Shown one piece after another: positions 3,248 through 21,840 of a stretch of DNA of 64,000 nt (position 1 is the stretch's first letter; each line of letters opens with the position of its first letter). The notes under the pieces were generated by a model that was not told where the DNA came from, did not search any database, and saw nothing but the letters and a program-made list of their open reading frames with translations. The position numbers and the translations under genes were made by a program. The stretch comes from an uncultured Gemmatimonadota bacterium. GTDB lineage: Bacteria > JAAXHH01. The stretch is taken from positions 3,712,001 to 3,776,000 of the forward strand of contig OX638340.1 in the NCBI GenBank assembly GCA_951812955.1. Reading direction: 5' to 3'.

Positions 3248-4198
3248 ATGAAACCCCCTTCGGCCGATTCCCGTCCCATGCCGGTTCTCGTGGGTCCTAC
3301 AGGCGCTGGCAAGACCGCCGTGGGTATCGAACTGGCCCGGCGAAACGGCGCCGAGATCGTTTCGGCGGATTCCCGTCAGATCTACCGTTACATGGATATC
3401 GGTACGGCCAAGCCCACGGCGGAAGAACGGGCCAGGGTACGGCACCACCTGGTGGATATCGTGGATCCGGACGTCCGTTTCAGCGCAGGGGAGTATGGCC
3501 GCCGCGCCCGTGAAACGATCCATGAGCTTGCCGTCCGCGGCGTGCCGGTCCTCGTGGTCGGTGGCGCGGGACTGTACATAAAGGCGCTGATCGAAGGGTT
3601 CTTCGAAGCACCGGAGATCCCGCGTGAGTTCAGACGCCGTCTAGCGGAAGGATATCGGAAACGGTCCTCGGCAGCGCTGCATCAGCGGCTTAAGGAAATC
3701 GATCCTGCGTCCGCCGGGCGCATACATGAGAACGACCGGCAACGAATCGAAAGGGCGCTGGAAGTCCACGACGCGACAGGCGCGACCCTGACTTCCTGGT
3801 TCGCAGGGCAGGTTCAGCCGCGATTCCGCAAAACGCGTCTCATCGGGTTGCGGCGGGACCGCGCTGCCCTTTACGCGAGAATCGACGCCCGGGTAGAAAA
3901 AATGATCGAATCAGGCTTCGAAGCGGAGGTCCACGGCTTGATGGACCGGGGATATGGAGTTGGAACCCATGCCCTGGCGACGTACGGTTACGCGGAAATG
4001 CTGAGGTGCATCCTCGGCGAGCTGGATCCGGAAGATGCCGTTTCGACCATACAACAACGGTCGAGGCAGTACGCTAAACGCCAGCTGACCTGGTTCAGAC
4101 AAACCGAGGGTATCGATTGGATTACCGTGGACGACGGAGAAGATCCGGCCGACACCTGCGAGAAGATCATCCGGACGTTCCCGGATCTGCTACTTTAG
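3248..4198 (+). CDS. miaA: tRNA dimethylallyltransferase
   Basis: VLVGPTGAGKTAVGIELA P-loop, then IVSADSRQIYRYMDIGTAKPT, DIVDP and LVVGGAGLY. Canonical MiaA. Confidence 0.9.
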   Translation: MKPPSADSRPMPVLVGPTGAGKTAVGIELARRNGAEIVSADSRQIYRYMDIGTAKPTAEERARVRHHLVDIVDPDVRFSAGEYGRRARETIHELAVRGVPVLVVGGAGLYIKALIEGFFEAPEIPREFRRRLAEGYRKRSSAALHQRLKEIDPASAGRIHENDRQRIERALEVHDATGATLTSWFAGQVQPRFRKTRLIGLRRDRAALYARIDARVEKMIESGFEAEVHGLMDRGYGVGTHALATYGYAEMLRCILGELDPEDAVSTIQQRSRQYAKRQLTWFRQTEGIDWITVDDGEDPADTCEKIIRTFPDLLL

Positions 4199-6010: not shown

Positions 6011-6123
6011 GTCGTTCGGCCGGGCTCCATGGACCACCAACCATCAGCCGTTCGGACTGATACACCGAATCGAATGCACTGAGCATAGCGATCATGCGTG
6101 GAGGAATCGTATCGTCCTGGTAA

Positions 6124-6930
6124 TCAGCTTCCTGTTGTCTCTTCGCGCTGGTGTTTAGGCGGAATGGGGAAGCGCTCCGCGTAGTGGGACAGATCCTTGC
6201 CCGAGATCAGGTCTTCCAGGATATCTTCGTTCTTGTCCCAATGCTGATCGTTCGGGTGGACGTCCAGCGCAATGCGCCCCTCAGTGTCGATCAAATAGGT
6301 GACGGGAATCCCGTAGCGTTGGTTGGTCTTGGCCCGAAACTGGCGTTCCCAGTAGCCGCGGAAGTCGAAAAGGGAGGTTGCGCTGTTCATATAATACGCG
6401 ATGACCTTTTCGTTCCGCGCTGCGATCCCGGCCATCTTGTCCGGATCGTTTTTCTCCGATTCGTCGGAAGGACGAACCAGTCTGGCCGCTTGTAGACCTT
6501 GCTTGAACAGATCCAGTCCGGGACCGAAGCCTTCCTCGAACTCACTGGGATCGAGGGGTTTCTCGTCCTTGTAGAATTTGTTTACGCCGACGAACAGAAA
6601 GTCGATTTGACCTTCGTACTTCTTCGCGATGTCCATCAGGGGTTCCGCATCCCTGATGCAGGGCGGGCACCACCAGGCCCAGAAGTTCACGAACAGGGGC
6701 CGGCCCCGGAAGTCCTCCAGGGTCACCTTCGTTCCATCCAGGGCGTACACTTCGAAGTTTGGCGCCATATGGCCGATCTCGGTGCCGATCGCGACGGCCT
6801 CGCTTTCGTTTCCGCCAATCGGTTCGCTTTCGTTTTCACCGGGTGTCCCGCTGCACGCGAATCCGAGTGTTCCGGCAAGCAGGCCCGGCATCAGTAGCGT
6901 CCGTACCGTTTCTTTCCACAAGCGCCGCAT
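6124..6930 (-). CDS. TlpA/ResA-family thiol-disulfide oxidoreductase (thioredoxin-like), probable lipoprotein
   Basis: WCPPC active site (FVNFWAWWCPPCIRDAEPL) and an N-terminal signal/lipobox-like MRRLWKETVRTLLMPGLLAGTLGFAC. Confidence 0.8.
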   Translation of the reverse strand: MRRLWKETVRTLLMPGLLAGTLGFACSGTPGENESEPIGGNESEAVAIGTEIGHMAPNFEVYALDGTKVTLEDFRGRPLFVNFWAWWCPPCIRDAEPLMDIAKKYEGQIDFLFVGVNKFYKDEKPLDPSEFEEGFGPGLDLFKQGLQAARLVRPSDESEKNDPDKMAGIAARNEKVIAYYMNSATSLFDFRGYWERQFRAKTNQRYGIPVTYLIDTEGRIALDVHPNDQHWDKNEDILEDLISGKDLSHYAERFPIPPKHQREETTGS

Positions 6931-7050: not shown

Positions 7051-7683
7051 TCACAGGCCGCCAAGTTCAGTTTCGAATGCGCCAACCGCCACGAGTATAT
7101 CCGGCTGGGACAGCACGGCCGAGATCGCCGCGACGCCGTGCGCGCCCGCTTCAAGGCACTGTTTCGTGCGCCCGGGGGTCACGCCGCCCAGGGCAAATAC
7201 GGGGATCGTCACCGCGCGGACCGATTCCGATAGCGCCTGCAGTCCCCGGGGCGGACCATAGGCTGCCTTGGACGACGTATCGTAAACCGGGCCGAAGGTG
7301 ATGAAGTCGGCCCCTTCCGCTTCCGCCGCCCGCGCTGCTTTCAAACTGTGCGTCGAGCGGCCGATCAGCGTACCCGCCGGCAGACGGTCGCGCGCCGTCC
7401 GCGCCAGGCGGACCGGCATACTCCGTTCAGGCAGGTGAATACCCTGTGCCCCGCAGGCCACGGCGACCTCCGGATTGCCATTGATGAACAGTGCGGGCCG
7501 AAGCGTGTCGAGTTCGCGCTGAACCCTCCGGATCAACGCAAGGAGTTCGGGGGTTTCGAGGTCCTTCTCCCTGATCTGGACCGCGCGGACGCCGGCGCGG
7601 CAGGCCTGGCGCAACGCCAGGGCAAGGGGCCGTCCGGCACACCGGGTTCGGTCGCTGATCAGATAGAACCTGAAGTCTACCAT
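7051..7683 (-). CDS. thiE: thiamine-phosphate synthase
   Basis: 210 aa with FYLISD...VQIREKD...GADFITFGPVY...VFALGGV, diagnostic ThiE motifs. Last gene of the thi operon. Confidence 0.9.
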   Translation of the reverse strand: MVDFRFYLISDRTRCAGRPLALALRQACRAGVRAVQIREKDLETPELLALIRRVQRELDTLRPALFINGNPEVAVACGAQGIHLPERSMPVRLARTARDRLPAGTLIGRSTHSLKAARAAEAEGADFITFGPVYDTSSKAAYGPPRGLQALSESVRAVTIPVFALGGVTPGRTKQCLEAGAHGVAAISAVLSQPDILVAVGAFETELGGL

Positions 7684-7688
7684 GCAGC

Positions 7689-8471
7689 CTACTTCGAGGA
7701 CGAATGGATCACGCCGCTTAGTGGACTGGACGCGGACGCATAGGCCTTCATGGGTATCCTGCCCGCTTCGTAGGCAAGGCGTCCGGCTTCAACCGCCTTG
7801 CGCATGGCGACGGCCATTTTCACCGGATCCCGTGCACCGGCCACGCCGGTATTCATCAGTATGCCGTCGCAGCCCAGCTCCATGGCGACGGATGCGTCGG
7901 AAGCGGTGCCGACGCCTGCGTCGACGATAACGGGTACCTGGCTGTTCTCGACGATGATGGCGATGTTGTGCGGGTTGCGTATGCCCAGGCCGGATCCGAT
8001 CGGCGCGGCCAGGGGCATGACCGCGACACAGCCCGCTTCTTCGAGCTTCTTGCAGATGATGGGATCGTCAATCGTATAGGGCATGACGTTGAATCCCCGA
8101 TCCACCAGGATGCGGGCGGCTTCCAGGGTGGCTTCGTTATCCGGGAACAGGGTCTTTTCATCCCCGATGACTTCGAGCTTTACCGTATCCGCGCCCAGTG
8201 CCTCCCGCGCCAGTTCGCAGGTCAGTACGGCGTCCTCGGCCGTATAGCATCCGGCCGTGTTGGGCAGCAGCTCGTACCGGTCCCGGTCGATATAATCGAG
8301 CAGCGACTCTCCCGAGGGATCATTCAGGTCGATTCGGCGAATGGCCACCGTAACCATGTCCGTACCGCTGACTTCGAAAGAATCCCGCATCAGTTCGAAA
8401 TTCGCGTATTTCCCCGTCCCGAGAATCAATCGGGATTTCAACTCCAATTCGCCTATTTTAAGGGCGCCCAT
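7689..8471 (-). CDS. thiG: thiazole synthase
   Basis: [20 protein letters not shown]...VKLEVIGD...[11 protein letters not shown] is canonical ThiG. The ATG at 8471 (AGGAG 9 nt upstream) is preferred over the ATG at 8477. The longer track ORF overlaps thiS. Confidence 0.9.
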
Positions 8472-8583
8472 GTTCATCTGCTCCTTTGCCTGTACAGACC
8501 TGGCCCGCAAGTCGTATTCTGGTTTAGTGCTGCGTGCTGGATCTTCCGCAGCGGCGGTGCTGCGCACGGGATGGTTGCAGCCG

Positions 8584-8784
8584 TTAACCGCCCGCAACCG
8601 CTCGAATCACTTCGACCACGTCATCGTCGGATAGCATTGCCGTCCCGTGATCCTTCCTCGGGACGACCGCTCCGTTCAGGGCCACTGCGGTCCCTTCGGA
8701 AGGCACGCCAAGCTCTTTCAGCAGGTCGGCGATGCTCGTGTCGCGGGGCAGATCCCGGGTTGTCCCGTTAACTGTCATGTTCAT
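8584..8784 (-). CDS. thiS: sulfur carrier protein ThiS
   Basis: 66 aa ending ...VIRAVAGG (C-terminal GG). Its start overlaps the thiO stop. Confidence 0.85.
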
Positions 8785-9922
8785 CGTTCGTCTCTCCGGT
8801 TCGAGCGGCGTAGAACCGATCGGGCAGAAAGGGCCGCATGATAGGGGGAACCCGATCGTGCAGGATTGCCTCGGCGATCAGGTCTCCTGTGAGCGGTGCA
8901 AGCAATATGCCGTTACGGCCGTGCCCGGATGCCGCGTATAGGCCGGGCGTACCCATGGCGCCAAGCACGGGCCATCCGTCCCGCGCCACCGGCCGCAGTC
9001 CCGACCAGGTGGAATCCAGCGGCCAGGATTTCAGACCGGGCGCAAGTTCGAGCGCGCTACGGAACAACTGCATGACTCCACCCAAAGTGACTTCGTCTCG
9101 AAACCCGGCTTCCTCCACGGTAGCGCCGATGATCAGCCGTCCGTCCGAACGGGGAACCAGGTATGCGCCGCCGGTGTATATCGTGTGCTTGAATGGTGTC
9201 GCCGCGCCCGTCCGCAGTGCGAGTATCTGGCCGCGCACCGGCCTAATGGGGATTCGGTGTGCGGCCGGGATGCCTTCCAGGTAGCGGGCCCGGCAGCCCA
9301 TGGCGTTTACTACCGTTGGCGTGTTCCACAGGCCGTCCGTTGTATCGACCCCGGCGACGCGATTTCCGTCCAGTACGATTTTCCGTGCGGTGACGCCTTC
9401 ACGGATTACGCCGCCGTTTAGACGAACGGATTGCGCCAGGGCCGCAACGACGTCCCTGTTTTCTACCTGGTGATCGTCCGGGTAGCGTAGCGCCATGCGG
9501 ATGCGGTTGGAAAGATCCGGCTCGAGTCGCCTCGCCTCCCGGACGGTCAGTTTCTCAACGGATACGCCATTCCGCAGGTGCCGTTCATACCGGGTCTCGA
9601 GCCGTGCCTGTTCACCGCCGCTCAACGCCGGATAGATCATCCCCGTGGCGTTGTAGTCTATCGGGCGGCCGGTCTCTTCCCGGAGGGATTCGACGAAACC
9701 GGCATAGCGCTCCAGTCCGGCCCTGCAAAGGATGAAATAAGGATCGGGCTCATCGAATTCGCAGTGCGGCGCCAGCATGCCCGCGGCGGCCCACGACGCG
9801 CCACGGCCGGTTCGGTGCTGCTCGAGTACCGTGACAGCGCTTCCGGATTGACACAGCTGTCTCGCTATGGCCAGACCGATGATCCCGCCGCCGATGACCA
9901 CTATGTCCGATCGTTGCGCCAC
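8768..9922 (-). CDS. thiO: glycine oxidase (FAD-dependent)
   Basis: DIVVIGGGIIGLAIA FAD-binding motif. First gene after the TPP riboswitch, in thiO-thiS-thiG-thiE order. Confidence 0.85.
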   Translation of the reverse strand: MAQRSDIVVIGGGIIGLAIARQLCQSGSAVTVLEQHRTGRGASWAAAGMLAPHCEFDEPDPYFILCRAGLERYAGFVESLREETGRPIDYNATGMIYPALSGGEQARLETRYERHLRNGVSVEKLTVREARRLEPDLSNRIRMALRYPDDHQVENRDVVAALAQSVRLNGGVIREGVTARKIVLDGNRVAGVDTTDGLWNTPTVVNAMGCRARYLEGIPAAHRIPIRPVRGQILALRTGAATPFKHTIYTGGAYLVPRSDGRLIIGATVEEAGFRDEVTLGGVMQLFRSALELAPGLKSWPLDSTWSGLRPVARDGWPVLGAMGTPGLYAASGHGRNGILLAPLTGDLIAEAILHDRVPPIMRPFLPDRFYAARTGETNDEHDS

Positions 9923-9944
9923 GGAACCTCGCCACTACGTCACC

Positions 9945-9979
9945 GGAAAACAAAAAGCCGTTTCGATCGGAAACGGCTT
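9945..9979 (-). terminator. intrinsic terminator (riboswitch expression platform)
   Basis: Minus strand AAAGCCGUUUCCGAUCGAAACGGCUUUUUGUUUU: an 8-bp GC stem with a 5-nt loop followed by a U-tract, 22 nt before the thiO ATG. Consistent with an OFF-state terminator. Confidence 0.75.
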
Positions 9980-9984
9980 TGTCC

Positions 9985-10070
9985 GGCCGTTTCCCTACGC
10001 TGGTATAACCCAGGTCAGGTTCAAAGGGTCGTGATTCTCAGGCCCGCGAGGAGCCGCCCCTAACGGTAAT
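9985..10070 (-). promoter_or_regulatory. TPP (THI-box) riboswitch aptamer
   Basis: Minus-strand reading GGGGCGGCUCCUCGCGGGCCUGAGAAUCACGACCCUUUGAACCUGACCUGGGUUAUACCAGCGUAGGGAA. Matches the TPP riboswitch core (CUGAGA ... ACCCUUUGAACCUGAUCUGG.UAAU.CCAGCGUAGGGAA). Lies immediately upstream of thiO. Confidence 0.9.
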
Positions 10071-10148
10071 ATGGCAGTTTAAGAAAAGCGGATAGAGGTG
10101 TCAACGAATTCTTCCCGGTATGGATGCCCGGTGAGGTGGCCCGGCGGA

Positions 10149-12338
10149 TCAGACCATGCCGAAATACCGCCGAAACAGCCACTCGCCCGTGAGCAGGCAG
10201 ACCAGTACAGCCAACACGGCGGGATGGTTCCAGAACGAGACGGTGCGCGTCTCCCGAACGGTGACCTCGTCCATGCTGATGTCGTCGGCCAGGCGATCGA
10301 TTTCCGATGGGAGGTAGAATCCCCCGTCCGTCATATCGGCCAATTGGACGAGGAGTTTCCGGTTCATGCGCGTTCTCTCAAACTCGGCGCCGGCCTCGCC
10401 CACGACGAATCCACCGGCGTCCGTCCCGAGCGGGATGCCATTCAGCGCGGCGGTAGCTTCAAACGAATATGCGCCCGCGGGCAAAAACTGAAGGCGTCCC
10501 GCGTATCGACCGAGGCCCTGTCCAGTCGAAGAGAGGTCTAACCGGAACGCGCCTGCTTCGTCCTGCTCGGACCGAACCGTCACCGACAGATCGGCACGTT
10601 CGACCGGCCGGTACTGCTCGTCGTATACCTGACCGTCGAATCGAATCGATTCTCCGTCCACGTACTGCAGTTTATCCGATGCGACACGAATCCTGCGACT
10701 GCTCTCCCGCACGGTGACCCATCTGACGGCATTGTTCCAGAACCTCTCGTACGCCGCGTTGGTTCCGCCGCTACCCCACATCATAAGGTCCCATCGCCAC
10801 AGGCCATGGGCGGCCACGCCGAGCACGCTGCCCTGGCCGTAGCGATGCACGGCGATGACCGGTGCAAGCTCATTTCCGGTTCGCCATGTAGGATGTCTGG
10901 CGAGTACAGTCGCGCCAGGTTTTGCGCGCCCGACCTGGTTCATGCCGGGCAGGGGAGGCAATTCCATCCAGCGCCGTTCCGATTCGGCCGGGTCATCATC
11001 CAGGCGGGTGATCGGATGCGTGCCGCCGTCAGCCGTCAGTACCGGAACAAAAGACGCTTCCGTCATCCCTCTTGCCGCCGCGGCGATCCCGAATGGCATC
11101 AGATTACCGAGGGGCGTTCCGGCGTAACCGCCCATTTCAAAGCTGTTTGGGCCGCCGAACGCAATCAATCCGCCGCCCCTCTCCTCGACAAAGGACACAA
11201 GGTAAGGCGCCCATGGCCGGATGCGGTCATAGTCCACGCTGCCCAGCATTACGAGGTCATAGGAAAACCAATCCATACGTGAAGCGGGCATGGGTTCGGG
11301 ATAGGTCCGGCCGTCGGGCCGGAACAGGATACTCGTTACTTCCAGGTTGGCGTCTTTTTCCAGCGTTCGTCGCAGGAAACCCATGTCGGCGCGCGGGGCT
11401 CCCTCGATATACAGAACGCGTAAACCGGACTTCAACGCCTTGACCGTGAAGTCGCGTCGGTTGTTTCGTGCGGTGATCTCGCCCTCGAGTTCGGGAACTT
11501 CCACCTCGTACCGATGGATGCCCTCGGTCTCGGGAACGATATGGAAAACAACCGTCCGTTCCACTTCCTGACCATCCAGGGCGATTTCCTCACTCCGCAG
11601 GATACGGCCCTCTTCCCGCAAGGTGACGGGTACGCGCATACTGCCGTATCCACGTCCGCGCACGACGACTTCGACCGGGACGTTGCTTCCGGTGTATACC
11701 ACTTCATTGAACGTCAAATGGGAGATGCTGATATCCCGGACGCCTAACGTGTCGCCGATTCCCACCGTAAACAGGGGCAGATCGAGTGCCTCTGCGACCC
11801 GGAGCGGATCGCGTCCGACGGTGAAATTGCCATCGGTAACCAGGATGGCGGCGCCGAAACTGCCGGCGCCGAAACCGCCTTCAAGAGAGGACAGGGCGCC
11901 GCCGATGTCGGTGCCGGCGCCGTCGGTAGACAGGGAATCAATATCGCCCTCGGGCAAGGGCGACAGGTCCTCGGCAAACCGGTAACGATGGACGCGGTGA
12001 CGGGCTTCCAGGGTCTTCAACGCATCACCGGAAAGTACCGAGGAAAGCACTTCGTTTCGCGCTCCCAGGCGGTCCGTCAGTCCCATGCTCGCCGAGGTGT
12101 CGACGAGCACTGCCAGTCCGGGAGATTCGGTCCGTTCCACCAGCATGCGCGAAACGGGTTCGCTGAGAATCGCCAGAAGCACGGCGGCGGCCGCGATCCG
12201 TAGACCGACAAGCCCCCAGGCCGCGGCGGGCGACAAAAGGGTGAAGAGCCGCCGGGAAAGCCCGTAAATAAGGATACAGGCAAGGATGAAAGCGATGAGG
12301 ATCCAGGTGAGGGAATCCGCTTGGAAATCCAGGGGCAT
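10149..12338 (-). CDS. large membrane protein: N-terminal double-TM anchor, von Willebrand A domain, GATase1/ThuA-like domain, C-terminal TM helix (two_anch/BatA-like family)
   Basis: 729 aa with N-terminal TM helices (WILIAFILACILIYGL; AAWGLVGLRIAAAAVLLAIL). VLVDTSASM is a MIDAS-like DxSxS motif. The central block GGGLIAFGGPNSF...TPLGNLMPF resembles class-I glutamine-amidotransferase-like folds. A C-terminal TM reads VLAVLVCLLTGEWLF. Confidence 0.6.
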   Translation of the reverse strand: MPLDFQADSLTWILIAFILACILIYGLSRRLFTLLSPAAAWGLVGLRIAAAAVLLAILSEPVSRMLVERTESPGLAVLVDTSASMGLTDRLGARNEVLSSVLSGDALKTLEARHRVHRYRFAEDLSPLPEGDIDSLSTDGAGTDIGGALSSLEGGFGAGSFGAAILVTDGNFTVGRDPLRVAEALDLPLFTVGIGDTLGVRDISISHLTFNEVVYTGSNVPVEVVVRGRGYGSMRVPVTLREEGRILRSEEIALDGQEVERTVVFHIVPETEGIHRYEVEVPELEGEITARNNRRDFTVKALKSGLRVLYIEGAPRADMGFLRRTLEKDANLEVTSILFRPDGRTYPEPMPASRMDWFSYDLVMLGSVDYDRIRPWAPYLVSFVEERGGGLIAFGGPNSFEMGGYAGTPLGNLMPFGIAAAARGMTEASFVPVLTADGGTHPITRLDDDPAESERRWMELPPLPGMNQVGRAKPGATVLARHPTWRTGNELAPVIAVHRYGQGSVLGVAAHGLWRWDLMMWGSGGTNAAYERFWNNAVRWVTVRESSRRIRVASDKLQYVDGESIRFDGQVYDEQYRPVERADLSVTVRSEQDEAGAFRLDLSSTGQGLGRYAGRLQFLPAGAYSFEATAALNGIPLGTDAGGFVVGEAGAEFERTRMNRKLLVQLADMTDGGFYLPSEIDRLADDISMDEVTVRETRTVSFWNHPAVLAVLVCLLTGEWLFRRYFGMV

Positions 12339-12498
12339 TCAGGGGTTCCGGTTCCGGTCCGGCGTTTGCTATGAAACGGGTAGAATCAGTCGACATCCCC
12401 TTCTTATAGTTTTCTTGTCCACAATTCAAGCATTTAAAACGATAGCATCCACACAGTGGTACCGTGCGCATACGAATGGCAACGCCACCCAAGCGATA

Positions 12499-13878
12499 TT
12501 AGCGGCCAGGTTGCATGTCCTTTCCCAGGGCGCCGTCCAGCGTGGCCTGGGCGATCAGGTAATCGTACTGCGCTCCGGCCAGATCGGATTTCGCCCGCGC
12601 CAGGGCTTCCTGCGCCGTAAAGACATCCAGCAGCGTGCCGGAACCCACCCGGTATCGTTCCTCCGCCAGCCGGAGACTCTCCTCCGCCGCCACGATGTTG
12701 TCGTTGCTGAGCGTGATGACTTCCCGGGCCGTATCCAGGTTGAGCAACGCGCGTCTGATCGTCAGCGACGTGGCCCTGCGGGTTTGTCGCAGCGTCTCCT
12801 CCGCGATCAGCTGCTGCGCCTGCGCCTGCGAAATCTCGGCATAGGTCTGCGTGCCATTCAGGATCGGCATGGTGAGATTCAAATTGAAGGAAAGCCGCCA
12901 GTTCTTGTCATAGGTGCCGTAGACATCCTGGAAGCGAACGCCCGATCGGCTGTAACCTATGTTGCCGGATACCGTTGGCCAGAGTCCACTCCGGGCCAGT
13001 TTGGTCCCGAGCAACGCGGTACGGATGCCGCCCTCATCCCGCTGGATGGCGGGATTGGTCAGGTCGGCCAGCCGAAGCGCGTCCTGTAAGCCCATGGGCG
13101 CCGTCGTGTCGAGCGACCCGCCTTCCAGCGGATCTGCGATCCGGAACACCTCGTTGGAACCGATGCCCATGACATTGGCCAGTTCGGCACGGGCCTGCAT
13201 AACCGCATTCTCCTGGTTATGCAGGTTTATGCGCACGCCGCCAAGTTGGGCCCTGGTCTGCAGTACGTCCACGCGGGCCACGGAACCGATCTCGTACATA
13301 CTCTGGGTCCGTCGCAACTGTTCCTCGTTCAGGCGAACCTGTTCTTCCGTCACTTCTTTGAGACGCAAGGCGCGTAGCAGGTTGTAGTACCGGGTCTTCA
13401 CGTCCACGGTAACCTGGTTTTCGGTATTTACCTGGTCCAGTTTCCCGTTGTCTACCAGTTGCCTGTCACGCCGGATCGTGTTCCAGTTCCTGCCGCCATT
13501 GTACAGGTCCATGCGCAGGAAGACGTTGTTGCTATAGTTCGTCCGGGTGCTGCCCTCCGCTACCTGGAGCTGGACGCCTTCGACAATGATCGGAGTATCG
13601 CCGGAAGTCGTCCGATTCGCGTTTACTAAGTTGGCGTTCAGCTGGGGCATGACACCCGAATAGGAACCGAGGACGGCGGCCTGCCGGACTTCCACCTGTT
13701 TCCGGGCGATCTCGATCTGGGGGTTGTTCTCCAGCGCGATCTGAATGCATCTGTCCAGCGTGTAAAAAGCGCCCTGGTCGGGATCGATTCCGGCGTTCTG
13801 CCCGTGCGCTTTCTCCGCGGGGGACAACAGGCCAGTTACGATCAGGACGGCCCAGCAGATCGTATTCCGCATCATCAT
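12499..13878 (-). CDS. TolC-family outer-membrane efflux protein
   Basis: Signal peptide MMMRNTICWAVLIVTGLL, a repeated coiled-coil/beta structure, and ...LDRCIQIALENNPQIEIARKQVE..., a typical OEP/TolC N-terminus. No cognate pump is adjacent. Confidence 0.8.
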   Translation of the reverse strand: MMMRNTICWAVLIVTGLLSPAEKAHGQNAGIDPDQGAFYTLDRCIQIALENNPQIEIARKQVEVRQAAVLGSYSGVMPQLNANLVNANRTTSGDTPIIVEGVQLQVAEGSTRTNYSNNVFLRMDLYNGGRNWNTIRRDRQLVDNGKLDQVNTENQVTVDVKTRYYNLLRALRLKEVTEEQVRLNEEQLRRTQSMYEIGSVARVDVLQTRAQLGGVRINLHNQENAVMQARAELANVMGIGSNEVFRIADPLEGGSLDTTAPMGLQDALRLADLTNPAIQRDEGGIRTALLGTKLARSGLWPTVSGNIGYSRSGVRFQDVYGTYDKNWRLSFNLNLTMPILNGTQTYAEISQAQAQQLIAEETLRQTRRATSLTIRRALLNLDTAREVITLSNDNIVAAEESLRLAEERYRVGSGTLLDVFTAQEALARAKSDLAGAQYDYLIAQATLDGALGKDMQPGR

Positions 13879-14040
13879 TGTATATCTCCTTGTTTCAATG
13901 GTAACGAAGGACCCTTTCAAGAATTAGACGGATAACCAGCCGAATTCCCGCGCAACAGATTGATTTATCTGTTAGACCCCGGACAGAATGGAAGGTTTCC
14001 GATTAACTGAGAAAGCGGGGAGAGAGAGGACGTCCGTCCG

Positions 14041-15180
14041 TCACCTGCGGCGTCGCCAGAGTATCAACAGGCCGACCGCGAGGACTCCCGCGCCCGCGCC
14101 GATCCACGAAGTATAACCCGTGGGAGAGGGAGATGCGGAGACCGCCGGCTTGATCGTGCAGAGCGAGGTGAGCAGTTCGACGGATTCGCTCACGGCCACG
14201 TCGCCGATCACCGTGAAGAGCTTTCCATCGTAATGCCTGCGCAGAATGGAATAGGGGCCGCGGTCCCACACGCGCACGTCGCCGAGCAGTTCGGGCGTAC
14301 CCTTGGGAGACATGTGAGACGCTTCGGAAGATGCGATCCGCTGGAAGAGCGAGATTCGCGAGAGGCCGTCGCTGTACATGAAATGCACGAGCGGCCGGCC
14401 GTGGTGCTGAATGACGCGGCGCTGCTGGAGGGCGAATCCCGGCGGAACGTAAACCGGGGCGTTCAATCTGAAATCCGCTTCCTGCTGCACTTCGCTGATG
14501 GATCCACAGGCAATGACCTGATTGATTTCGACGGACTTGCCCGTCCATTCCTCCGTAGCGAAGAGGTCCGGCGGGATAGACGGATCTTTTTCGAATTCCG
14601 TCAGGAAGAGTTCCTCGACGAGTACACCGGCCTCGTTGCGTTCTTCAGTCCGCATCACCAGGCCCGTTTCCTCGTCGATCCACGCCTTCATGGTCATTCT
14701 GCCGGGATGGCGGGGCTTGAAAGCCAGGACGGCCACCGGACGGTCGAGAAGCCGGTCGGCGCCGGTAATTTCGAGTTCGTAGTTGGTTTGAAGCAGATCG
14801 AGACTGCTGAACTCCAGGTTCATATCGAGCAGGTTGGAGTTCGACTGTCGGCGGTGCGAATAGAAGAGCGAGTCTCCCGAGGCCTTCCGCCGGTATATGT
14901 CGTCGTCCACGCGGATGATGACCTCACGGATGCGACCATCCGAATCGGGGATGTCGATGCGGTCCCGGTCAGGACGCTGATGGGTTATTCTCTGGACATA
15001 GCGGGTGGTGTCCCCCGCCGCGTTGAACCGCTGCTTCGTCATCGTGGCACGGTAGCTCACGCGGGCCGGAGCTTCCATGATCTTCTGGTAGGTTACATCC
15101 GGATCGACTGCGCGGACGGGAGAAGGGCTCGAAAGGCAGGCCGCGGCAACGAAACAGAGGAATACAGGTCGAAACATCAT
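14041..15180 (-). CDS. periplasmic MucB/RseB-like (LolA-fold) sigma-E regulatory protein with C-terminal TM/Arg tail
   Basis: Signal peptide MMFRPVFLCFVAAACLSSPSPVRA. Its position directly after the ECF sigma and anti-sigma genes (10-nt gaps) supports this call. The protein ends PSPTGYTSWIGAGAGVLAVGLLILWRRRR. Confidence 0.5.
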   Translation of the reverse strand: MMFRPVFLCFVAAACLSSPSPVRAVDPDVTYQKIMEAPARVSYRATMTKQRFNAAGDTTRYVQRITHQRPDRDRIDIPDSDGRIREVIIRVDDDIYRRKASGDSLFYSHRRQSNSNLLDMNLEFSSLDLLQTNYELEITGADRLLDRPVAVLAFKPRHPGRMTMKAWIDEETGLVMRTEERNEAGVLVEELFLTEFEKDPSIPPDLFATEEWTGKSVEINQVIACGSISEVQQEADFRLNAPVYVPPGFALQQRRVIQHHGRPLVHFMYSDGLSRISLFQRIASSEASHMSPKGTPELLGDVRVWDRGPYSILRRHYDGKLFTVIGDVAVSESVELLTSLCTIKPAVSASPSPTGYTSWIGAGAGVLAVGLLILWRRRR

Positions 15181-15190
15181 GGCGTATCGC

Positions 15191-15682
15191 CTATTCCTTG
15201 TAGTTGACCATGACGGAACCCAGGGTACCGCTGGTAAAAACGCTTTGATCCTCGATCAGGGCGTGTTCCTGCAGGATGAAGAACATATCGTCGTTCGAGA
15301 TCGTCTGCTGGACGGCCGGCGTATCGACCGGCCTGATCGACTGCCAGATCAGCCCGCCGGCCACCAGTAAAAGCGTGGCAGCGACTGCGATGTATTGACG
15401 GGGCTGCTTGGTGCGCGACGCATCCCTTTTTTTCATGCCCGGAACCATATGGGCGTGTGTCGTGCGTTCCAGAATCGCAGTCTGGACTTCCGCTGCCACC
15501 ACCGCCGTGGGCTTCTCCAGGCGGCAGCAGCGCAACATGCCGCGGACGGACTGCAATCCGCGCAATTCCCGCGCGCAACCGGGGCAGGACTCGATGTGCC
15601 GCGCGATTTCGGCGACTTCCTCGTTGCCGCACATGCGCTCCAGGTAGAACGTGAGCCGTTTCTTTATCTGGTTGCAGTTCAT
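15191..15682 (-). CDS. anti-sigma factor with zf-HC2 zinc finger and single TM helix
   Basis: C3...H29..C33PGC36 matches the zf-HC2 pattern. A TM helix YIAVAATLLLVAGGLIW follows. Sits 9 nt downstream of the ECF sigma gene. Confidence 0.8.
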   Translation of the reverse strand: MNCNQIKKRLTFYLERMCGNEEVAEIARHIESCPGCARELRGLQSVRGMLRCCRLEKPTAVVAAEVQTAILERTTHAHMVPGMKKRDASRTKQPRQYIAVAATLLLVAGGLIWQSIRPVDTPAVQQTISNDDMFFILQEHALIEDQSVFTSGTLGSVMVNYKE

Positions 15683-15691
15683 GGCTTGGTC

Positions 15692-16363
15692 CTATAGATC
15701 CAGGTATCCGGCGAGTCGCTTGGAAAGCACGCGCTTCAACTTGAGCCGTCCGTGATGCAGCCGGGACATCACCGTCCCTTCGGGACACTGAAGTATCTCC
15801 GCGATCTGCCGGTGGGAGAGACCTTCCAGGTCGAACAGCACGACAACGGTCCGGTGCCGCTCCGACAGGGTATCCAGCGCGGCCATAATGGACCGCTTCA
15901 ACTCAGCGTTCTCCAGCACCTCGTGCGGAGTTTTCTCTGAGGACGGCAGATTGGAAACTAGAAACTGCTTTCCGGTGCCGCCGTTCCGCCCGCCGTAATC
16001 CGAAAAGGAGTACATGCGGCGTCGGGCCTCCCGCTTGCGGTAGTTGATACACTTGTTGATCAAAATGCGGTATAGCCAGGTCGAAAACCTATACTGCGTG
16101 TTGAACCGTTCCAGCGTTCTAAACACTTCGAGAAAGGCGTCCTGAACGAGGTCGCGCGCGTCATCGTGGCTCGCGAGCATCTGGTACGCCACGGAATAGG
16201 CCTTCTCGCTGTATCGCCTCGTCATTTCGTCGAAGGCGGAGCCATCGCCTGATTTGGCCCGTTCCATCAACCTTCGTTCTTCTTCGCGCCGGTCTTCGCT
16301 CGCGCCCTGGACGGCCGGTCTTTTCCGTTCCGCTACCGAATGGATTTTGCTGACGGTGTTCAC
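15692..16363 (-). CDS. RNA polymerase ECF sigma factor (sigma-E/sigma-24 family)
   Basis: Region 2 (DLVQDAFLEVFRTLERF...FSTWLYRILINKCINYRK) and region 4 (LSHRQIAEILQCPEGTVMSRLHHGRLKLK) are both recognisable. Confidence 0.9.
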   Translation of the reverse strand: MNTVSKIHSVAERKRPAVQGASEDRREEERRLMERAKSGDGSAFDEMTRRYSEKAYSVAYQMLASHDDARDLVQDAFLEVFRTLERFNTQYRFSTWLYRILINKCINYRKREARRRMYSFSDYGGRNGGTGKQFLVSNLPSSEKTPHEVLENAELKRSIMAALDTLSERHRTVVVLFDLEGLSHRQIAEILQCPEGTVMSRLHHGRLKLKRVLSKRLAGYLDL

Positions 16364-16491
16364 CCAGTTACACCCCTGGTCCTATCCCATGCGTCTCTGT
16401 GACTGAATCCGTATACATCCTCAATCAGTTTATCTTCACAAAATGGCCGGATTCACGGCTGTTAAATCGTTTTGGATACACGTTACGGATA

Positions 16492-17469
16492 CTATGCAAG
16501 GCTGATTTCATTGGATTTCCGATACATCTCGAGTGCCTTGTCGAGCTGTCTGCTCTTGTCGTAGATCATGCCGAGATACCGGTACGCCTGTTCATTGCGC
16601 GGTTCATGACGGAGCAGGGTTTCGAAGTGCTCGATCGCTTCCGCATGCTTATCCACGTGACAGTATGCCTTGCCCAGTTGGAGATATACCTCCGCCTTCG
16701 ACCGGTCCACGTCCAACGCGCGGGAGAGTATCTTGATCGCTTCGTCGTAGATTCCGATAGTGATGTAAAGTACGCCGAGCTGATAGCAGGCCCGGTAAGA
16801 ATAAGGATCGTATTCCAGGGCGCTATGGAGGTCGGTCCTGGCATCCTCGAATTGTCCCATTTCCGCGTACAGCGCCGCACGGTCGACCAGCGTATCTATA
16901 TGTCCCGAATCGATCGCCAGGGCGCGATTGTAATGCTCACGCGCGGTTTCCTGGGCGCCGAGGCGGCAGTACATCCTGCCCAGACTGCCCATCGCGGCGG
17001 TGTGACCGGGATGCTGTTCGAGAATACGTCTGTACTGCTGGATCGCCAGTTCGGTTTTACCCTTATTCGCGAGGATCTCCGCCCGGTTCATCATCGCGGA
17101 GAGATCGTCGGTTCTGTTTTTTGGCGTTTCTTCGGCGTGTTGTTTCACCGTACCGGCAGATTCCGGCCTGGCAGGCTCTTCGGAAAGGGGCGACTGGCTC
17201 GCCACGGTGTCTTTCAAGGCATCGAAAGGAACGAAATGGGGAATGTTGCGGTCGTTCAGGCGCAATCCCACGTTGGAATTCAGATCTCGCGCCATGCGTG
17301 CTTTCCTGACTTTTACACTGAAGGCGCCGAACCGGTGGAGGTTCACTCGTTCGTCCCGGGAAATCGCCTCGTTTACTTCCGACAGGAACGCGTTGAGCAC
17401 TGCAGACACCCTGCGCCTGGAGACCTGGGTCCTGGATGCCACTTCGTTTACTAGCGATTCTCTGTTCAT
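16492..17469 (-). CDS. HU/IHF-family DNA-binding domain fused to a C-terminal TPR-repeat domain
   Basis: From MNRESLVNEVASRTQVSRRRVSAVLNAFLSEVNEAISRDERVNLHRFGAFSVKVRKARMARD...IPHFVPFDALKD is a clear HU fold. It is followed by ~6 TPR repeats (AIQQYRRILEQHP..., EHYNRALAIDSGH..., AIKILSRALDVD..., AIEHFETLLRHEP...). The start is taken at the M beginning the HU domain. Confidence 0.7.
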   Translation of the reverse strand: MNRESLVNEVASRTQVSRRRVSAVLNAFLSEVNEAISRDERVNLHRFGAFSVKVRKARMARDLNSNVGLRLNDRNIPHFVPFDALKDTVASQSPLSEEPARPESAGTVKQHAEETPKNRTDDLSAMMNRAEILANKGKTELAIQQYRRILEQHPGHTAAMGSLGRMYCRLGAQETAREHYNRALAIDSGHIDTLVDRAALYAEMGQFEDARTDLHSALEYDPYSYRACYQLGVLYITIGIYDEAIKILSRALDVDRSKAEVYLQLGKAYCHVDKHAEAIEHFETLLRHEPRNEQAYRYLGMIYDKSRQLDKALEMYRKSNEISLA

Positions 17470-18650: not shown

Positions 18651-18712
18651 AACTGGTGCCTTTACATGGATTATTCGATGCGACGAACCCCGTGCAATCC
18701 CGATCGGTTACT

Positions 18713-20944
18713 ATGAAGCTCAGCGCGGTACTGTTTTCCCTGCTGTTGATTCACGCCCCGGCGCAGGCCGCCACGATAAGCGGATTCGTCACGGATCGTA
18801 CCAGCGGTGAATTCCTGCTCTCCGCGAACGTATTCCTGAGCGGAACGTCGTTGGGCGCCTTGAGCAATGAGAGCGGCTATTATGCAATTACCGGGATACC
18901 CGCGGGATCCTACGTCCTCATCGTGTCATACCTCGGATACGAGACGCACCGGGACTCGCTTAGTCTCGGCGCCGAAGCGTATCTTCGGCTGGACGTGACC
19001 CTCGCGCCGACCGTGCTGATCGGCGAGGAAACCGTAGTCGAGGCGGATCGAAACAGAGACGAGCGCCTGGCTCAACCCGGTTTCGTCGCCCTCCAGGCCG
19101 CGGTACTGCAGGAGCTGCCCGCCATAGGGGAAACCGACTTGTTGCGCAGCCTGCAGCTCCTTCCGGGCATCCAGGCATCGTCGGATATAAGCAGCGGCCT
19201 GTACATCCGGGGCGGCGGTCCCGATCAGACCCAGATACTTCTCGATCAGATCCCCCTCTACAATCCCTCGCACGCATTCGGATTCTTTTCCATTTTCAAT
19301 CCGGAAGCCATCAAGGACATGCGCCTGCACAAGAGCGCTTATCCCGCCAGTTACGGCGGCAACCTCGGTGCGGTGCTCGACGTGACGAACCGCGACGGCA
19401 ACCGCAACGACCTTCGCGGATCGGGCGGAATCAGCCTCATCTCGATGCGCACCATGATCGAAGGCCCCCTTGCACGCGGCTCTTTCATGGTTTCCGGAAG
19501 GCGAACGTACCTGGAACCGATCCTGGCCTATATCCGGCGGCGCGTAGAGGATATCCCAGGATACTATTTCTATGATGTGAATGCGAAAATCAACCAGAAT
19601 CTGTCCTACTCGGACAATCTGGTGCTGAGCGGATACTTCGGCCGGGACGACCTGAACCTCGAAACCAGCGACGACAACCACTTCAACGTCCGCTGGGGCA
19701 ATTCCGCGATAACGGGCAAATGGACGCACCTGTTCTCGCCTACGCTATTCGGCAATTTCATTGTTTCGGGAAGCGACTACGCGAGCCGGCTTTCGGCGAA
19801 TTTCGACGGAACGGAAGTGCTCTTCAGGAACAGCATTCGGGACATCAGCGTCAAGGGCGACCTGGACTATGTCGCCGACGACCAACACGCGCTGAAGGGC
19901 GGTTTCCGCGCTACGGGATACCGGTTCAGATTCAAGCGGAGCTTCAACCAGGATGATCAGCTCGACCTCAGGCTGAGGCCCTACGTAGTCTCGGTATATG
20001 CCCAGGACCAGTGGCAGGCGCTGCCTTCGACCTCGATTCGCCTGGGACTGCGCGGGAACTATTACAGCGAACGCGGCAAGATCGACCTGGAGCCTCGTGT
20101 TTCGCTCAGTCACCGGCTGCCCGGCGGGTTGCGGCTGAAGGCGGGCGGCGGACGGTACCACCAGTACCTGCAACTGATCACCACGGAGGGCTTCAGCGGC
20201 GGCGATTTCTGGGTGCCGCTCGACAGCAGTGTGGAACCCGGTCAGGCGTGGCATTTCGTCATCGGCGCAAGTTGGGACCCGGCGCCGAACTACCGGCTAT
20301 CGCTCGAATCCTACTATCAGCGTTTGGGCAACCTGGTCGTCGTGGACAACACGCGGGCGGCAGGCGCCGATGAAACCCGGTCTGAGGACGTGTTCATCAC
20401 CGGTGGCAGGGGGTACGCCACGGGTGTGGAGCTGTTTGTGGAGCGCATGTCGGGCAGATTGACAGGATGGATCGGCTACACGCTCGGGTGGACGCGCCGC
20501 CAGTTCCCGGAACTGAACCAGGGTGACTGGTTTCCTCCGAAGTACGACCGTCGCCACGATCTCGTGGTTTCGGCCAATTACAGGGCCGGCCGCTGGACAT
20601 TTGGATGCAATGTGATTTTCGCAACCGGGCAGGCCTTCACGCCCGCCTCTGCCCGTTACGAATTGAGGGAATCGGCGCGAACCGGCATACGGGAGGACTA
20701 TTTCCTGCCCACCGGGCGCAATACCGCGCGGTTGCTGCCATACCACCGGGTGGACCTGAGCGTCAAGCAGGATTTTCGCCTGTTCGGCCGAGATCTCCAG
20801 TGGTATCTGCAGGTATTCAACGCCTACAATCATCGCAACGAATGGTTTATTCAGTACAATACGGAAGATGACGGGATCACCACCGCGGATGTGGTGAAGA
20901 TGCTGCCCATCGTACCGACGCTCGGCCTGAACTACGAATTCTGA
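18713..20944 (+). CDS. TonB-dependent outer-membrane receptor (SusC-like, CarboxypepD_reg N-domain + plug + barrel)
   Basis: Signal peptide MKLSAVLFSLLLIHAPAQA, then ATISGFVTDRTSGEFLLSANVF...GYYAITGIPAGSYVLIVSYLGYETH (carboxypeptidase-regulatory-like). Plug motifs are present, and the protein ends with a C-terminal aromatic residue (...LGLNYEF). Confidence 0.9.
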   Translation: MKLSAVLFSLLLIHAPAQAATISGFVTDRTSGEFLLSANVFLSGTSLGALSNESGYYAITGIPAGSYVLIVSYLGYETHRDSLSLGAEAYLRLDVTLAPTVLIGEETVVEADRNRDERLAQPGFVALQAAVLQELPAIGETDLLRSLQLLPGIQASSDISSGLYIRGGGPDQTQILLDQIPLYNPSHAFGFFSIFNPEAIKDMRLHKSAYPASYGGNLGAVLDVTNRDGNRNDLRGSGGISLISMRTMIEGPLARGSFMVSGRRTYLEPILAYIRRRVEDIPGYYFYDVNAKINQNLSYSDNLVLSGYFGRDDLNLETSDDNHFNVRWGNSAITGKWTHLFSPTLFGNFIVSGSDYASRLSANFDGTEVLFRNSIRDISVKGDLDYVADDQHALKGGFRATGYRFRFKRSFNQDDQLDLRLRPYVVSVYAQDQWQALPSTSIRLGLRGNYYSERGKIDLEPRVSLSHRLPGGLRLKAGGGRYHQYLQLITTEGFSGGDFWVPLDSSVEPGQAWHFVIGASWDPAPNYRLSLESYYQRLGNLVVVDNTRAAGADETRSEDVFITGGRGYATGVELFVERMSGRLTGWIGYTLGWTRRQFPELNQGDWFPPKYDRRHDLVVSANYRAGRWTFGCNVIFATGQAFTPASARYELRESARTGIREDYFLPTGRNTARLLPYHRVDLSVKQDFRLFGRDLQWYLQVFNAYNHRNEWFIQYNTEDDGITTADVVKMLPIVPTLGLNYEF

Positions 20945-20946
20945 CC

Positions 20947-21840
20947 ATGCAGACCAAAACCAGGAAACCTCCATACATCCCGGGCGTGCTGGCGGTCGCC
21001 CTGCTTGCCGGTCTCTCCGTCCTTTCGAGTTGTAACGGGGAGCGGGACCCGGCGACGCTCTTCGGTCCGGACGAACGTGTAACCGTTGTCGTAGACGCCG
21101 TGCTGTACGTCGATCGTATCCTGCCGGAGATCATCGTCACCCGGACGCGCGCCGCGAATATCGCTTTTACCGAAGAAGCCGCTGCGGTGAACGATGCCGA
21201 GGTCACCATCATACAGGGACTTGCGGAATACAGGTACGAGCGCGTCGGCCACCTGGGCCGGTATCTTCCGCCGCCGGGATCGCCCAAGGTACGGCCCGGC
21301 ACTGAATACCGTCTTCACGTCCGCGCACTCGGCAAGGAAATCCGGGGCGTCACTAAAACTCCGGGACGCCTGTCCTTCGATGAAGTCGTCATCGTCGACG
21401 AGACTTCCATGGAAGTGCTAGACCGGCTCGAGCCCCGAACCACCCCCCGGAACCAGGTGGTGTACCGGGAGGGACTCATGGAGGTGAGGTTCGATCCCCT
21501 CGACGTGGAGGCATACCAGGTCGTCGTACTGGACAGGGAGGCCGATGACGAGGTCAGCTCGCCGCCGCTCGAAGCGCGGGACGGCCGCCTGGCGCTGCCC
21601 TGGTTCGCCATCGGCTCTTCCGGAGAACACGAAGTCGAAGTGTACGCGCTGGACCGGAACCTGTTCGATTTCCTTCGAAGCGTAGAGGCGTCCGGTCAGA
21701 ACGCCTTCGGGTTCGGCAGCCTCGCGGGCGATACCTTCGAACGCCCGGTTTTCAATCTCGACGGCGGAATCGGCGTTTTCGGCTCGGCTTCCGTGGGACG
21801 CTTCGGTTTCGTCGTCTTGCAGGAAGATCGAAGCGGTTAA
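20947..21840 (+). CDS. DUF4249-family lipoprotein (TonB-receptor partner)
   Basis: Starts 3 nt after the receptor stop. Lipobox LSVLSSC. Size and context match the DUF4249 proteins that follow SusC-like receptors. Confidence 0.6.
   Translation: MQTKTRKPPYIPGVLAVALLAGLSVLSSCNGERDPATLFGPDERVTVVVDAVLYVDRILPEIIVTRTRAANIAFTEEAAAVNDAEVTIIQGLAEYRYERVGHLGRYLPPPGSPKVRPGTEYRLHVRALGKEIRGVTKTPGRLSFDEVVIVDETSMEVLDRLEPRTTPRNQVVYREGLMEVRFDPLDVEAYQVVVLDREADDEVSSPPLEARDGRLALPWFAIGSSGEHEVEVYALDRNLFDFLRSVEASGQNAFGFGSLAGDTFERPVFNLDGGIGVFGSASVGRFGFVVLQEDRSG

Follow-up and report, generated by a model that had tools for sequence, protein, structure and literature searches.

The gene block

Six contiguous genes on the minus strand of a 64-kb stretch of DNA from an uncultured Gemmatimonadota bacterium (contig OX638340.1; the whole stretch is hereafter 'the window', and its positions supply the coordinates used here) encode a fusion of an HU domain with TPR repeats (HU-TPR), an extracytoplasmic function (ECF) sigma factor, a zf-HC2 anti-sigma factor, an RseB-like periplasmic protein, a TolC-like channel and a membrane protein with a VWA domain. 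An initial annotation had suggested that the block might be a single envelope-stress or outer-membrane assembly module, in which the sigma factor would act through the TolC-like channel and the VWA protein. The genes are as follows.

16492-17469, minus strand: HU-TPR gene (the ORF reaches 17580; the HU domain begins at the Met at 17469)
15692-16363, minus strand: ECF sigma factor gene (223 aa; GTG start)
15191-15682, minus strand: zf-HC2 anti-sigma factor gene (163 aa)
14041-15180, minus strand: RseB-like gene
12499-13878, minus strand: tolC-like gene (459 aa; the mechanical ORF extends to 13920)
10149-12338, minus strand: VWA protein gene (729 aa)

All six open reading frames (ORFs) were found as described by the initial annotation. 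The gaps it gave as 9-10 nt within the ECF/anti-sigma/RseB group (hereafter the triad) and about 160 bp before tolC and before the VWA gene measure 9 and 10 nt inside the triad, 162 nt ahead of tolC and 160 nt ahead of the VWA gene. The tolC start at 13878 is the first ATG with an AGGAG Shine-Dalgarno sequence. Domain calls were taken from Pfam and NCBIfam searches, with bit scores set against model cutoffs, and bore out the assignments made for the HU-TPR, ECF sigma, zf-HC2, RseB and OEP (TolC-family) proteins. The closest genomes are metagenome-assembled genomes (MAGs) of sponge, coral and seawater origin that carry the label Gemmatimonadetes or Latescibacterota, and not the Rhodothermota or Bacteroidota to which the stretch had been attributed.

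For comparison, a scan with a reduced VWA alignment gave 77 genome loci, each with a homologue of the VWA protein at its centre, and these were searched by tblastn and phmmer with the six block proteins and four flanking proteins; comparison loci carry L numbers. The entire block is present in 20 loci with at least 72% VWA identity and sufficient flanks, and the same 20 loci also keep unrelated flanking genes, with ThiO downstream and DUF6807, a TonB-dependent receptor and DUF4249 upstream.

The sigma factor and its membrane partners

The sigma factor matches Sigma70_r2 (65 bits), r4_2 (62 bits) and TIGR02937 (119 bits, cutoff 43), and its restriction to regions 2 and 4 and length of about 200 aa place it among the ECF (group 4) sigma factors. 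Its best named models are PRK12518 and SigW, the latter at 136 bits and below cutoff, and it reaches no equivalog cutoff in NCBIfam. Orthologues mostly start with ATG, versus GTG in the window.

The anti-sigma factor is a single-pass membrane protein of the zinc-binding (ZAS) class with a short periplasmic tail, recognised by PF13490 zf-HC2 (32 bits, cutoff 22) and by its zinc motif, H29-x3-C33-x2-C36. Across nine lineages at 18-48% identity, C3, H29, C33 and C36 are invariant, as is the periplasmic pair E139-H140, which closes the motif D-M-x-F-x-L-Q-E-H. Pfam searches gave no match to RseA_N or RseA_C in this protein; the unrelated locus L088 does match both.

The RseB-like protein carries a signal peptide at one end and a transmembrane (TM) helix followed by an RRRR tail at the other. 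Its MucB_RseB N-domain scores 57.9 bits (cutoff 22.3) and its C-domain a marginal 30.0 bits against a cutoff of 30.1; with homologues that carry both domains, it belongs to the two-domain RseB/MucB family. It lies outside the equivalog for the E. coli-type soluble RseB (NF006990, 35 bits against a cutoff of 368). The unusual C-terminal anchor remarked on in the initial annotation is real, the TM helix and RRR tail being conserved in the clade down to 44% identity. A hydrophobic C-terminal tail with basic residues was flagged in 19 of the 149 top RseB-like representatives (two of them from the clade and one doubtful), making the anchor a minority yet recurrent trait. The tail was also considered as a sorting signal, but the models for MYXO-CTERM, LPXTG and GC_trans_RRR all scored below cutoff and no conserved motif precedes the helix; it is therefore treated as a plain membrane anchor. 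A word-based search for RseB homologues returned this clade only, while an exhaustive profile search showed a sharp drop after the clade, followed by thousands of distant RseB-like proteins. By analogy with sigmaE/RseA/RseB, the RseB-like protein would bind the periplasmic tail of the anti-sigma factor. RseB/LolA-like domains are known to bind lipids, not metals.

Two conserved promoter motifs

Five non-coding features lie within or beside the block.

16411-16438, minus strand: P_ecf, TGAAGA-N16-GTATAC, putative autoregulatory promoter of the ECF operon
13972-14000, minus strand: P_tolC, GGAAAC-N17-GTCTAA, ECF-type promoter motif upstream of tolC
13954-13973, minus strand: palindrome AACAGAT-N6-ATCTGTT, overlapping the expected tolC transcript start
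13924-13929, minus strand: second GTCTAA box, with GGGAAT 14 nt before it
9975-10071, minus strand: thiamine pyrophosphate (TPP) riboswitch, 69.9 bits

P_ecf occurs once in the window against 0.03 sites expected. In the clade it takes the form TGAAG(A/G)-N16/17-GTATA(C/T) with a variable spacer sequence, and it precedes the ECF gene in nearly all triad loci, L081 being ambiguous; in L008, despite an 11-nt insertion, a GTATAG element still stands at the correct 16-nt spacing. The same motif is found upstream of distant ECF orthologues, as TGAAGA-N16-GTATAT in L089, TGAAGC-N16-GTACAT in L090, TGAAGC-N16-GTACAC in L092 and TGAAGG-N16-GTATAT in L086 and L093. Recurrence before sigma factors only 37-47% identical is the pattern expected of an autoregulated ECF sigma factor.

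The region between the RseB-like gene and tolC is, by phylogenetic footprinting, the best-conserved non-coding stretch of the block. Here lies P_tolC, whose conserved core on the minus strand reads CGGAAACCTTCC-N-GGTCTAAC, and which occurs once in the window against 0.04-0.15 sites expected. The motif stands upstream of tolC in every triad-bearing locus (about 25, including L018, L078-80, L081, L083 and L084). Its -35 and -10 hexamers persist at 46-56% identity, and down to 46% RseB identity, while the spacer varies, a pattern characteristic of promoters. In L019, the one relative without the triad, the region between the HU-TPR gene and tolC lacks the motif. The promoter before the TPP riboswitch is canonical (TTGACA-17-TAAACT), and since the housekeeping promoters of this genome look canonical, P_ecf and P_tolC appear to be of non-sigma70 types. 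The initial annotation had proposed looking for an ECF-type promoter ahead of both tolC and the VWA gene: one is found at tolC and none at the VWA gene.

Two further elements lie close to the tolC start. The arms of the palindrome are near-invariant and its loop variable in the clade at 72% identity or above, and it is absent from the 46-56%-identity lineages; the tolC 5' leader folds with it as a 5' hairpin, at a z-score of -1.9 that is not compelling, and it could be an operator or an RNA hairpin. The second GTCTAA box is conserved in all triad-bearing lineages. As a second ECF promoter it is a poor candidate, since its 14-nt spacing from the GGAAT-like element does not fit. Neither element matches the geometry of P_tolC, and they could represent an operator, a 5' hairpin or a second promoter. 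The tolC gene of L019 (7330-8709 of that locus) has an in-frame TGA stop after residue 253, and may be a pseudogene or reflect a MAG assembly error.

Distant triads and efflux genes

The TolC-like protein is a member of the OEP family (PF02321, two repeats, 222 bits) and scores 185.6 bits against TIGR01844, below the cutoff of 225. As read from its sequence, it has a signal peptidase I signal, MMMRNTICWAVLIVTGLLSPAEKAHG, and no lipoprotein Cys. It best matches the type-I/TolC subfamily rather than CzcC/CusC (NF007347, only 22 bits).

Beyond the clade, nine distant triad contexts were compared at about 22-27% RseB identity, namely the metagenome loci L085 and L087 and loci L089-L095; the metagenome scan, made with an alignment of distant RseB proteins, yielded four short loci. 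The ECF sigma factors are 37-47% identical to that of the window where checked (L089, L091, L092 and L093). The five anti-sigma factors that were aligned (L089-L093) share C3, H29, C33 and C36 together with an invariant periplasmic E-H within D(M/I/L)-x-phi-phi-L-(Q/E)-E-H. On the strength of this identity and these shared residues, the nine loci were judged to hold orthologous triads.

In all nine, RseB is immediately succeeded by the gene for an RND-type membrane-fusion protein (MFP). In L089, L092, L094 and L095 the two genes either share 8-17 nt or are separated by 4 nt, indicating a single operon there, and an RND pump (ACR_tran) follows wherever the contig continues and is annotated (L091, L092 and L094). 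In L085, L086 and L093 the sequence TGAAAT-N18-GTCTAA lies between the RseB and MFP genes, its -10 element identical to that of P_tolC. With efflux genes at nine triads out of nine, the ECF family appears dedicated to tripartite efflux, and the window clade appears to be a variant with an outer-membrane factor next to the triad, most lineages having an MFP and RND pump in the same operon.

Two other genes recur in these distant clusters. A 770-aa DUF5916/CBM9-like gene follows the MFP gene in L091 (8791-11103 of that locus, before the RND pump) and L093 (9121-11433), and a 113-aa DUF2007 gene lies between MFP and RND pump in L092 (8565-8906) and L094 (3568-3909). Both may be additional conserved components of the efflux clusters.

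A probable four-gene unit and the case for synteny alone

Taken from sequence comparison, the functional unit is rather likely to comprise four genes: the ECF sigma factor, its ZAS anti-sigma factor, the tethered RseB-like protein and the downstream tolC. The earlier proposal that both tolC and the VWA gene are effectors of the sigma factor stands in part: tolC, with its conserved ECF-type promoter and the efflux genes at distant triads, is probably such an effector, and the VWA gene falls away. The anatomy of the proteins, the conserved motifs and the recurrent efflux context are observed directly, and from them we infer both the sigma factor that reads P_tolC and the nature of the signal. 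At rest, the anti-sigma factor would hold the sigma factor at the membrane while the RseB-like protein shields the conserved periplasmic tail from proteolysis, by analogy with sigmaE/RseA/RseB and sigmaW/RsiW. The RseB-like protein would be displaced by an envelope signal, for which the likeliest candidates are ligands of its LolA-like domain, either a lipid intermediate or a compound of amphipathic or lipophilic character. The anti-sigma factor would then be degraded by regulated proteolysis and the sigma factor freed to transcribe its own operon from TGAAGA-N16-GTATAC and tolC from GGAAAC-N17-GTCTAA. The outcome would be a greater supply of outer-membrane exit duct to efflux pumps encoded elsewhere in the genome.

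More tentatively, as a possibility to which we would not yet commit ourselves, the triad may represent a phylogenetically wide, apparently undescribed ECF group acting as a sensor-regulator hard-wired to tripartite RND efflux. Such a group would be marked by a ZAS anti-sigma factor with an invariant L(Q/E)EH, an often tethered RseB and promoters of the TGAAGn-N16-GTAyAy and GTCTAA types, and in it the LolA-like RseB domain would serve as periplasmic receptor for lipophilic pump substrates or displaced lipids.

Several observations weigh against the four-gene unit. As the initial annotation had noted, the channel has no adjacent pump or adaptor, and no MFP, RND or ABC gene was found in the annotated flanks or, with MFP and RND proteins as tblastn queries, anywhere in the window. 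The distant triads are linked with MFP and RND genes rather than with an OEP gene. Adjacency within the clade is uninformative by itself, because the unrelated flanking genes are equally conserved and conservation of the block is therefore ordinary synteny. Both promoter assignments rest on consensus and conservation, and another ECF sigma factor could read P_tolC, which differs from P_ecf in its -35 element (GGAAAC versus TGAAGA), its -10 element (GTCTAA versus GTATAC) and its spacer (17 versus 16). The joint absence of triad and P_tolC is seen in a single MAG, that of L019, and the palindrome and second GTCTAA box may mean that tolC is subject to additional or different regulation.

Some of these points also speak for a plainer explanation, which we hold to be unlikely without dismissing it, that the triad regulates genes elsewhere or only itself and adjoins by accident a housekeeping tolC that is read by another sigma factor or regulator. 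The difference between the two promoters in both elements would follow from it, as would the tolC of L019 beside HU-TPR with no triad, and the palindrome and second box are suggestive of other regulators; an orphan TolC, moreover, typically serves several pumps. Against it, with efflux genes at nine of nine distant triads it is unlikely that an efflux component adjoins the triad by chance; GTCTAA turns up again as the -10 element between RseB and the MFP gene in a lineage with only about 22% RseB identity; and where the triad is missing, so is the P_tolC motif.

The HU-TPR and VWA genes as neighbours

A single envelope-stress or outer-membrane assembly system made up of all six genes, in which TolC and the VWA protein would be effectors and HU-TPR a co-regulator, is improbable and has been largely refuted by the neighbourhood analysis. 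In its favour, the six genes are contiguous and on the same strand in about 20 genomes of the clade. The searches of the 77 VWA-centred loci led us to reject a conserved six-gene system, since they show the order kept only alongside unrelated flanks, and the synteny of tolC with the VWA gene is matched by that of the thiamine operon. The block breaks up at about 50% identity. L018 retains ThiO, VWA, TolC, RseB, anti-sigma and ECF sigma with HU-TPR displaced; L019 retains DUF6807, HU-TPR, TolC, VWA and ThiO with the triad missing; and L021 retains VWA and ThiO, with a polytopic membrane protein in the tolC position. In the 46-56%-identity loci the order runs from a PorV-like gene through HU-TPR, a gene for a 490-aa acidic protein, ECF sigma, anti-sigma and RseB to an OEP gene, Fe-ADH (iron-containing alcohol dehydrogenase, in some), VWA, ThiO, ThiS, ThiG, ThiE and AhpC, with Wzz, Wzy, Wzx and glycosyltransferase genes on the opposite strand.

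The HU-TPR protein matches Bac_DNA_binding (71 bits), HU-HIG (43 bits) and TPR families, and is a cytoplasmic HU/IHF-like domain fused to TPR. In relatives at 46-56% identity (L078-L084 and L018) its gene is the middle member of a tight group of three ahead of the ECF gene, with a 343-aa PorV-like beta-barrel candidate upstream and, downstream, a 490-aa highly acidic protein with no Pfam match, which splits it from the ECF gene. The group is divergent from the adjoining Wzz/Wzy/Wzx/glycosyltransferase polysaccharide genes, and about 100 nt with a promoter-like motif separate it from the ECF gene. Neither HU-TPR nor a VWA homologue is found near any of the nine distant triads, which tells against HU-TPR as a member of the module; it is best read as a separately transcribed neighbour outside the module, kept by clade-wide synteny. 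The window lineage has lost both of its partners, the PorV-like and the 490-aa protein.

The 729-aa VWA protein gave no Pfam or NCBIfam match even at E<=10, BatA and the TIGR02226 (two_anch) assignment of the initial annotation included. Its reading as a VWA and GATase1-like protein is sound: the residues of the metal-ion-dependent adhesion site (D80-x-S82-x-S84, T143 and D169) are present on a Rossmann-like fold and conserved, a GATase1-like (PF07090/ThuA-like) domain is recognised, and homologues carry PF00092, PF07090 and PF01835. The VWA domain is followed by a beta-sandwich, the GATase1-like domain and a second beta-sandwich. The predicted model shows the TM helices proposed earlier, two of them N-terminal and one C-terminal. 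By the positive-inside rule (RR loop at 28-31; C-terminal FRRY) the protein would lie in the inner membrane with its large domain in the periplasm, a topology that would make contact with TolC physically possible and to that extent favours the six-gene system.

The junction between tolC and the VWA gene is variable. It spans 160-215 nt in some relatives, 17 nt in seven loci and 4 nt in L083, and is an 8-nt overlap in L018; the shorter junctions would permit co-transcription in those genomes. An opposite-strand Fe-ADH gene, with orthologues 63-68% identical, lies between the two in L010-12, L019 and L078-80, and in L021, where tolC is absent and the VWA gene present without it, stands just upstream of the VWA gene. 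In the window itself the junction holds the following feature.

12339-12498, minus strand: tolC-VWA intergenic region, remnant of a divergent Fe-ADH/VWA regulatory region

These 160 nt are homologous to the sequence that separates Fe-ADH from the VWA gene in L010-12, so the VWA gene has its own upstream region. The gap conserves TGCTTGAA..TATAAG and a TGTC(A/G)ACTG box, and contains no ECF-type motif, both motifs having been scanned across the window. We rejected an ancestral tolC-VWA operon, as the short and overlapping junctions might suggest, because Fe-ADH occupies the same position in four separate branches and because of this homology. With Fe-ADH at the junction in several branches, the simplest history is that tolC and the VWA gene were ancestrally separate units and Fe-ADH was lost several times. 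In L014, L016 and L020, expanded GGCCAGC/CCGGNC-rich repeats lie just upstream of the VWA start.

Among 53 loci at 37% VWA identity or below, none has an ECF, anti-sigma or RseB gene within 10 kb and three have a TolC-family gene nearby. In 27, a MoxR AAA_3 ATPase gene lies within the same 10 kb, the usual order being SurA-like peptidyl-prolyl isomerase, MoxR, subtilase, VWA homologue. Distant VWA homologues are never near triad genes; with Fe-ADH between the genes in deep branches, this counts against the VWA protein as an effector. The closest known systems for the 729-aa protein alone are the Bat/MoxR-VWA systems (BatA/BatB; DUF1355 GATase1-like family), from which it differs in that the window has no MoxR (by tblastn), DUF58 or other Bat gene. 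From its sequence context, we regard the VWA gene too as a separately transcribed neighbour outside the module, kept by clade-wide synteny. In the Chlorobiota-like loci L070 (5861-7270) and L073 (8833-10242), a TolC-family gene with a probable MFP gene lies about 0.8 kb downstream of the VWA homologue; this adjacency, in two or three of the 53 loci, was judged a chance neighbour of an ordinary efflux operon.

Farther afield, thiO, (thiS), thiG and thiE follow the TPP riboswitch, at which there is a terminator-like hairpin (9954-9980). This thiamine stretch (7051-10104, minus strand) is succeeded by an AhpC/redoxin-like gene (6124-6930), and relatives down to 49% identity keep this arrangement in synteny with the VWA gene. 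At 4190-6040 (minus strand) lies the gene for a 616-aa protein that combines DUF6055 with a C-terminal domain of FlgD_ig/T9SS-like type, and at 18656-21840 (plus strand) are those for a CarboxypepD_reg-Plug TonB-dependent receptor and its DUF4249 partner. These are surface and secretion traits in the style of the FCB group, in a lineage labelled Gemmatimonadota.

Comparison with known systems

In gene content the triad most resembles sigmaE-RseA-RseB(-RseC) and AlgU-MucA-MucB of Proteobacteria (ECF02), in which an ECF sigma factor, a single-pass anti-sigma factor and an RseB/MucB-family protein are encoded in a tight operon and the target promoter is of the GGAAC..GTCTAA type. It differs in that the anti-sigma factor is a ZAS protein and not RseA, RseC is missing, the RseB-like protein is tethered by a C-terminal helix, and the conserved downstream context consists of efflux genes, not lepA or translation genes. 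Envelope-stress induction of efflux has a precedent in the AlgU-dependent MexCD-OprJ.

The sigmaW-RsiW system of Bacillus subtilis shares a SigW-like sigma factor, a membrane ZAS anti-sigma factor that is presumably removed by regulated proteolysis, and promoters (consensus TGAAAC-N16-CGTATA) whose shape the window motifs resemble; its regulon is concerned with detoxification and membrane-active compounds. Unlike the arrangement here, RsiW has no RseB partner, and the window organism is a diderm whose adjacent target is an outer-membrane channel.

A third likeness is to CnrYXH-cnrCBA and NccYXH (ECF291, Cupriavidus metallidurans; PMC7826278), where the genes for an ECF sigma factor, its anti-sigma factor and a periplasmic sensor adjoin a tripartite RND efflux system and control it. 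There, however, CnrY and the metal-binding helical sensor CnrX are unrelated to ZAS and RseB, and a full pump operon is present where the window has only the outer-membrane factor; Pfam calls zf-HC2 and MucB_RseB in the window proteins, not CnrY or CnrX. The least probable reading, that the triad is a CnrYXH-like heavy-metal sensor controlling Czc-type (heavy-metal efflux RND) export with TolC as a CzcC-like duct, can draw on the precedents for ECF-controlled metal efflux (ECF291/CnrH, and ECF281 with its zinc-finger anti-sigma factor; PMC7826278), on matches of the distant MFPs to CzcB/CusB-type sub-domain models, on a small ORF between ECF and RseB in L086 with a weak Metal_resist match (E 0.005) and on the Zip and DtxR-family genes flanking L090 and L092, but the same MFPs also match generic RND and YknX models, the window encodes no CnrX, CnrY or metal-binding protein, its TolC is nearest the type-I/TolC subfamily, and the known ligands of RseB/LolA-like domains, as noted above, are lipids.

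Implications

No description of an ECF/ZAS/RseB-MFP-RND cluster was found in the searchable literature, although the ECF/ZAS/RseB group may already be a numbered ECF group. Efflux pumps are usually described under cytoplasmic repressors or two-component systems, and the metal system CnrYXH is the main known case of ECF-controlled efflux.

Striking as it looks, the six-gene block mostly reflects phylogenetic synteny, and its VWA/GATase1-like membrane protein remains an orphan of the MoxR/Bat-associated family. Since these sponge and marine symbionts are uncultured, it is useful that the two promoter motifs and the conserved anti-sigma peptide lend themselves to tests in a heterologous host. If the proposed link to efflux is true, RseB-like (LolA-fold) proteins would gain a role beyond the sigmaE paradigm, and ECF/ZAS/RseB-RND operons would add to many uncultured lineages a periplasm-sensing, proteolysis-gated route to efflux induction, one whose way of sensing substrates would be distinct both from cytoplasmic sensing of the TetR/MarR type and from CnrYXH.

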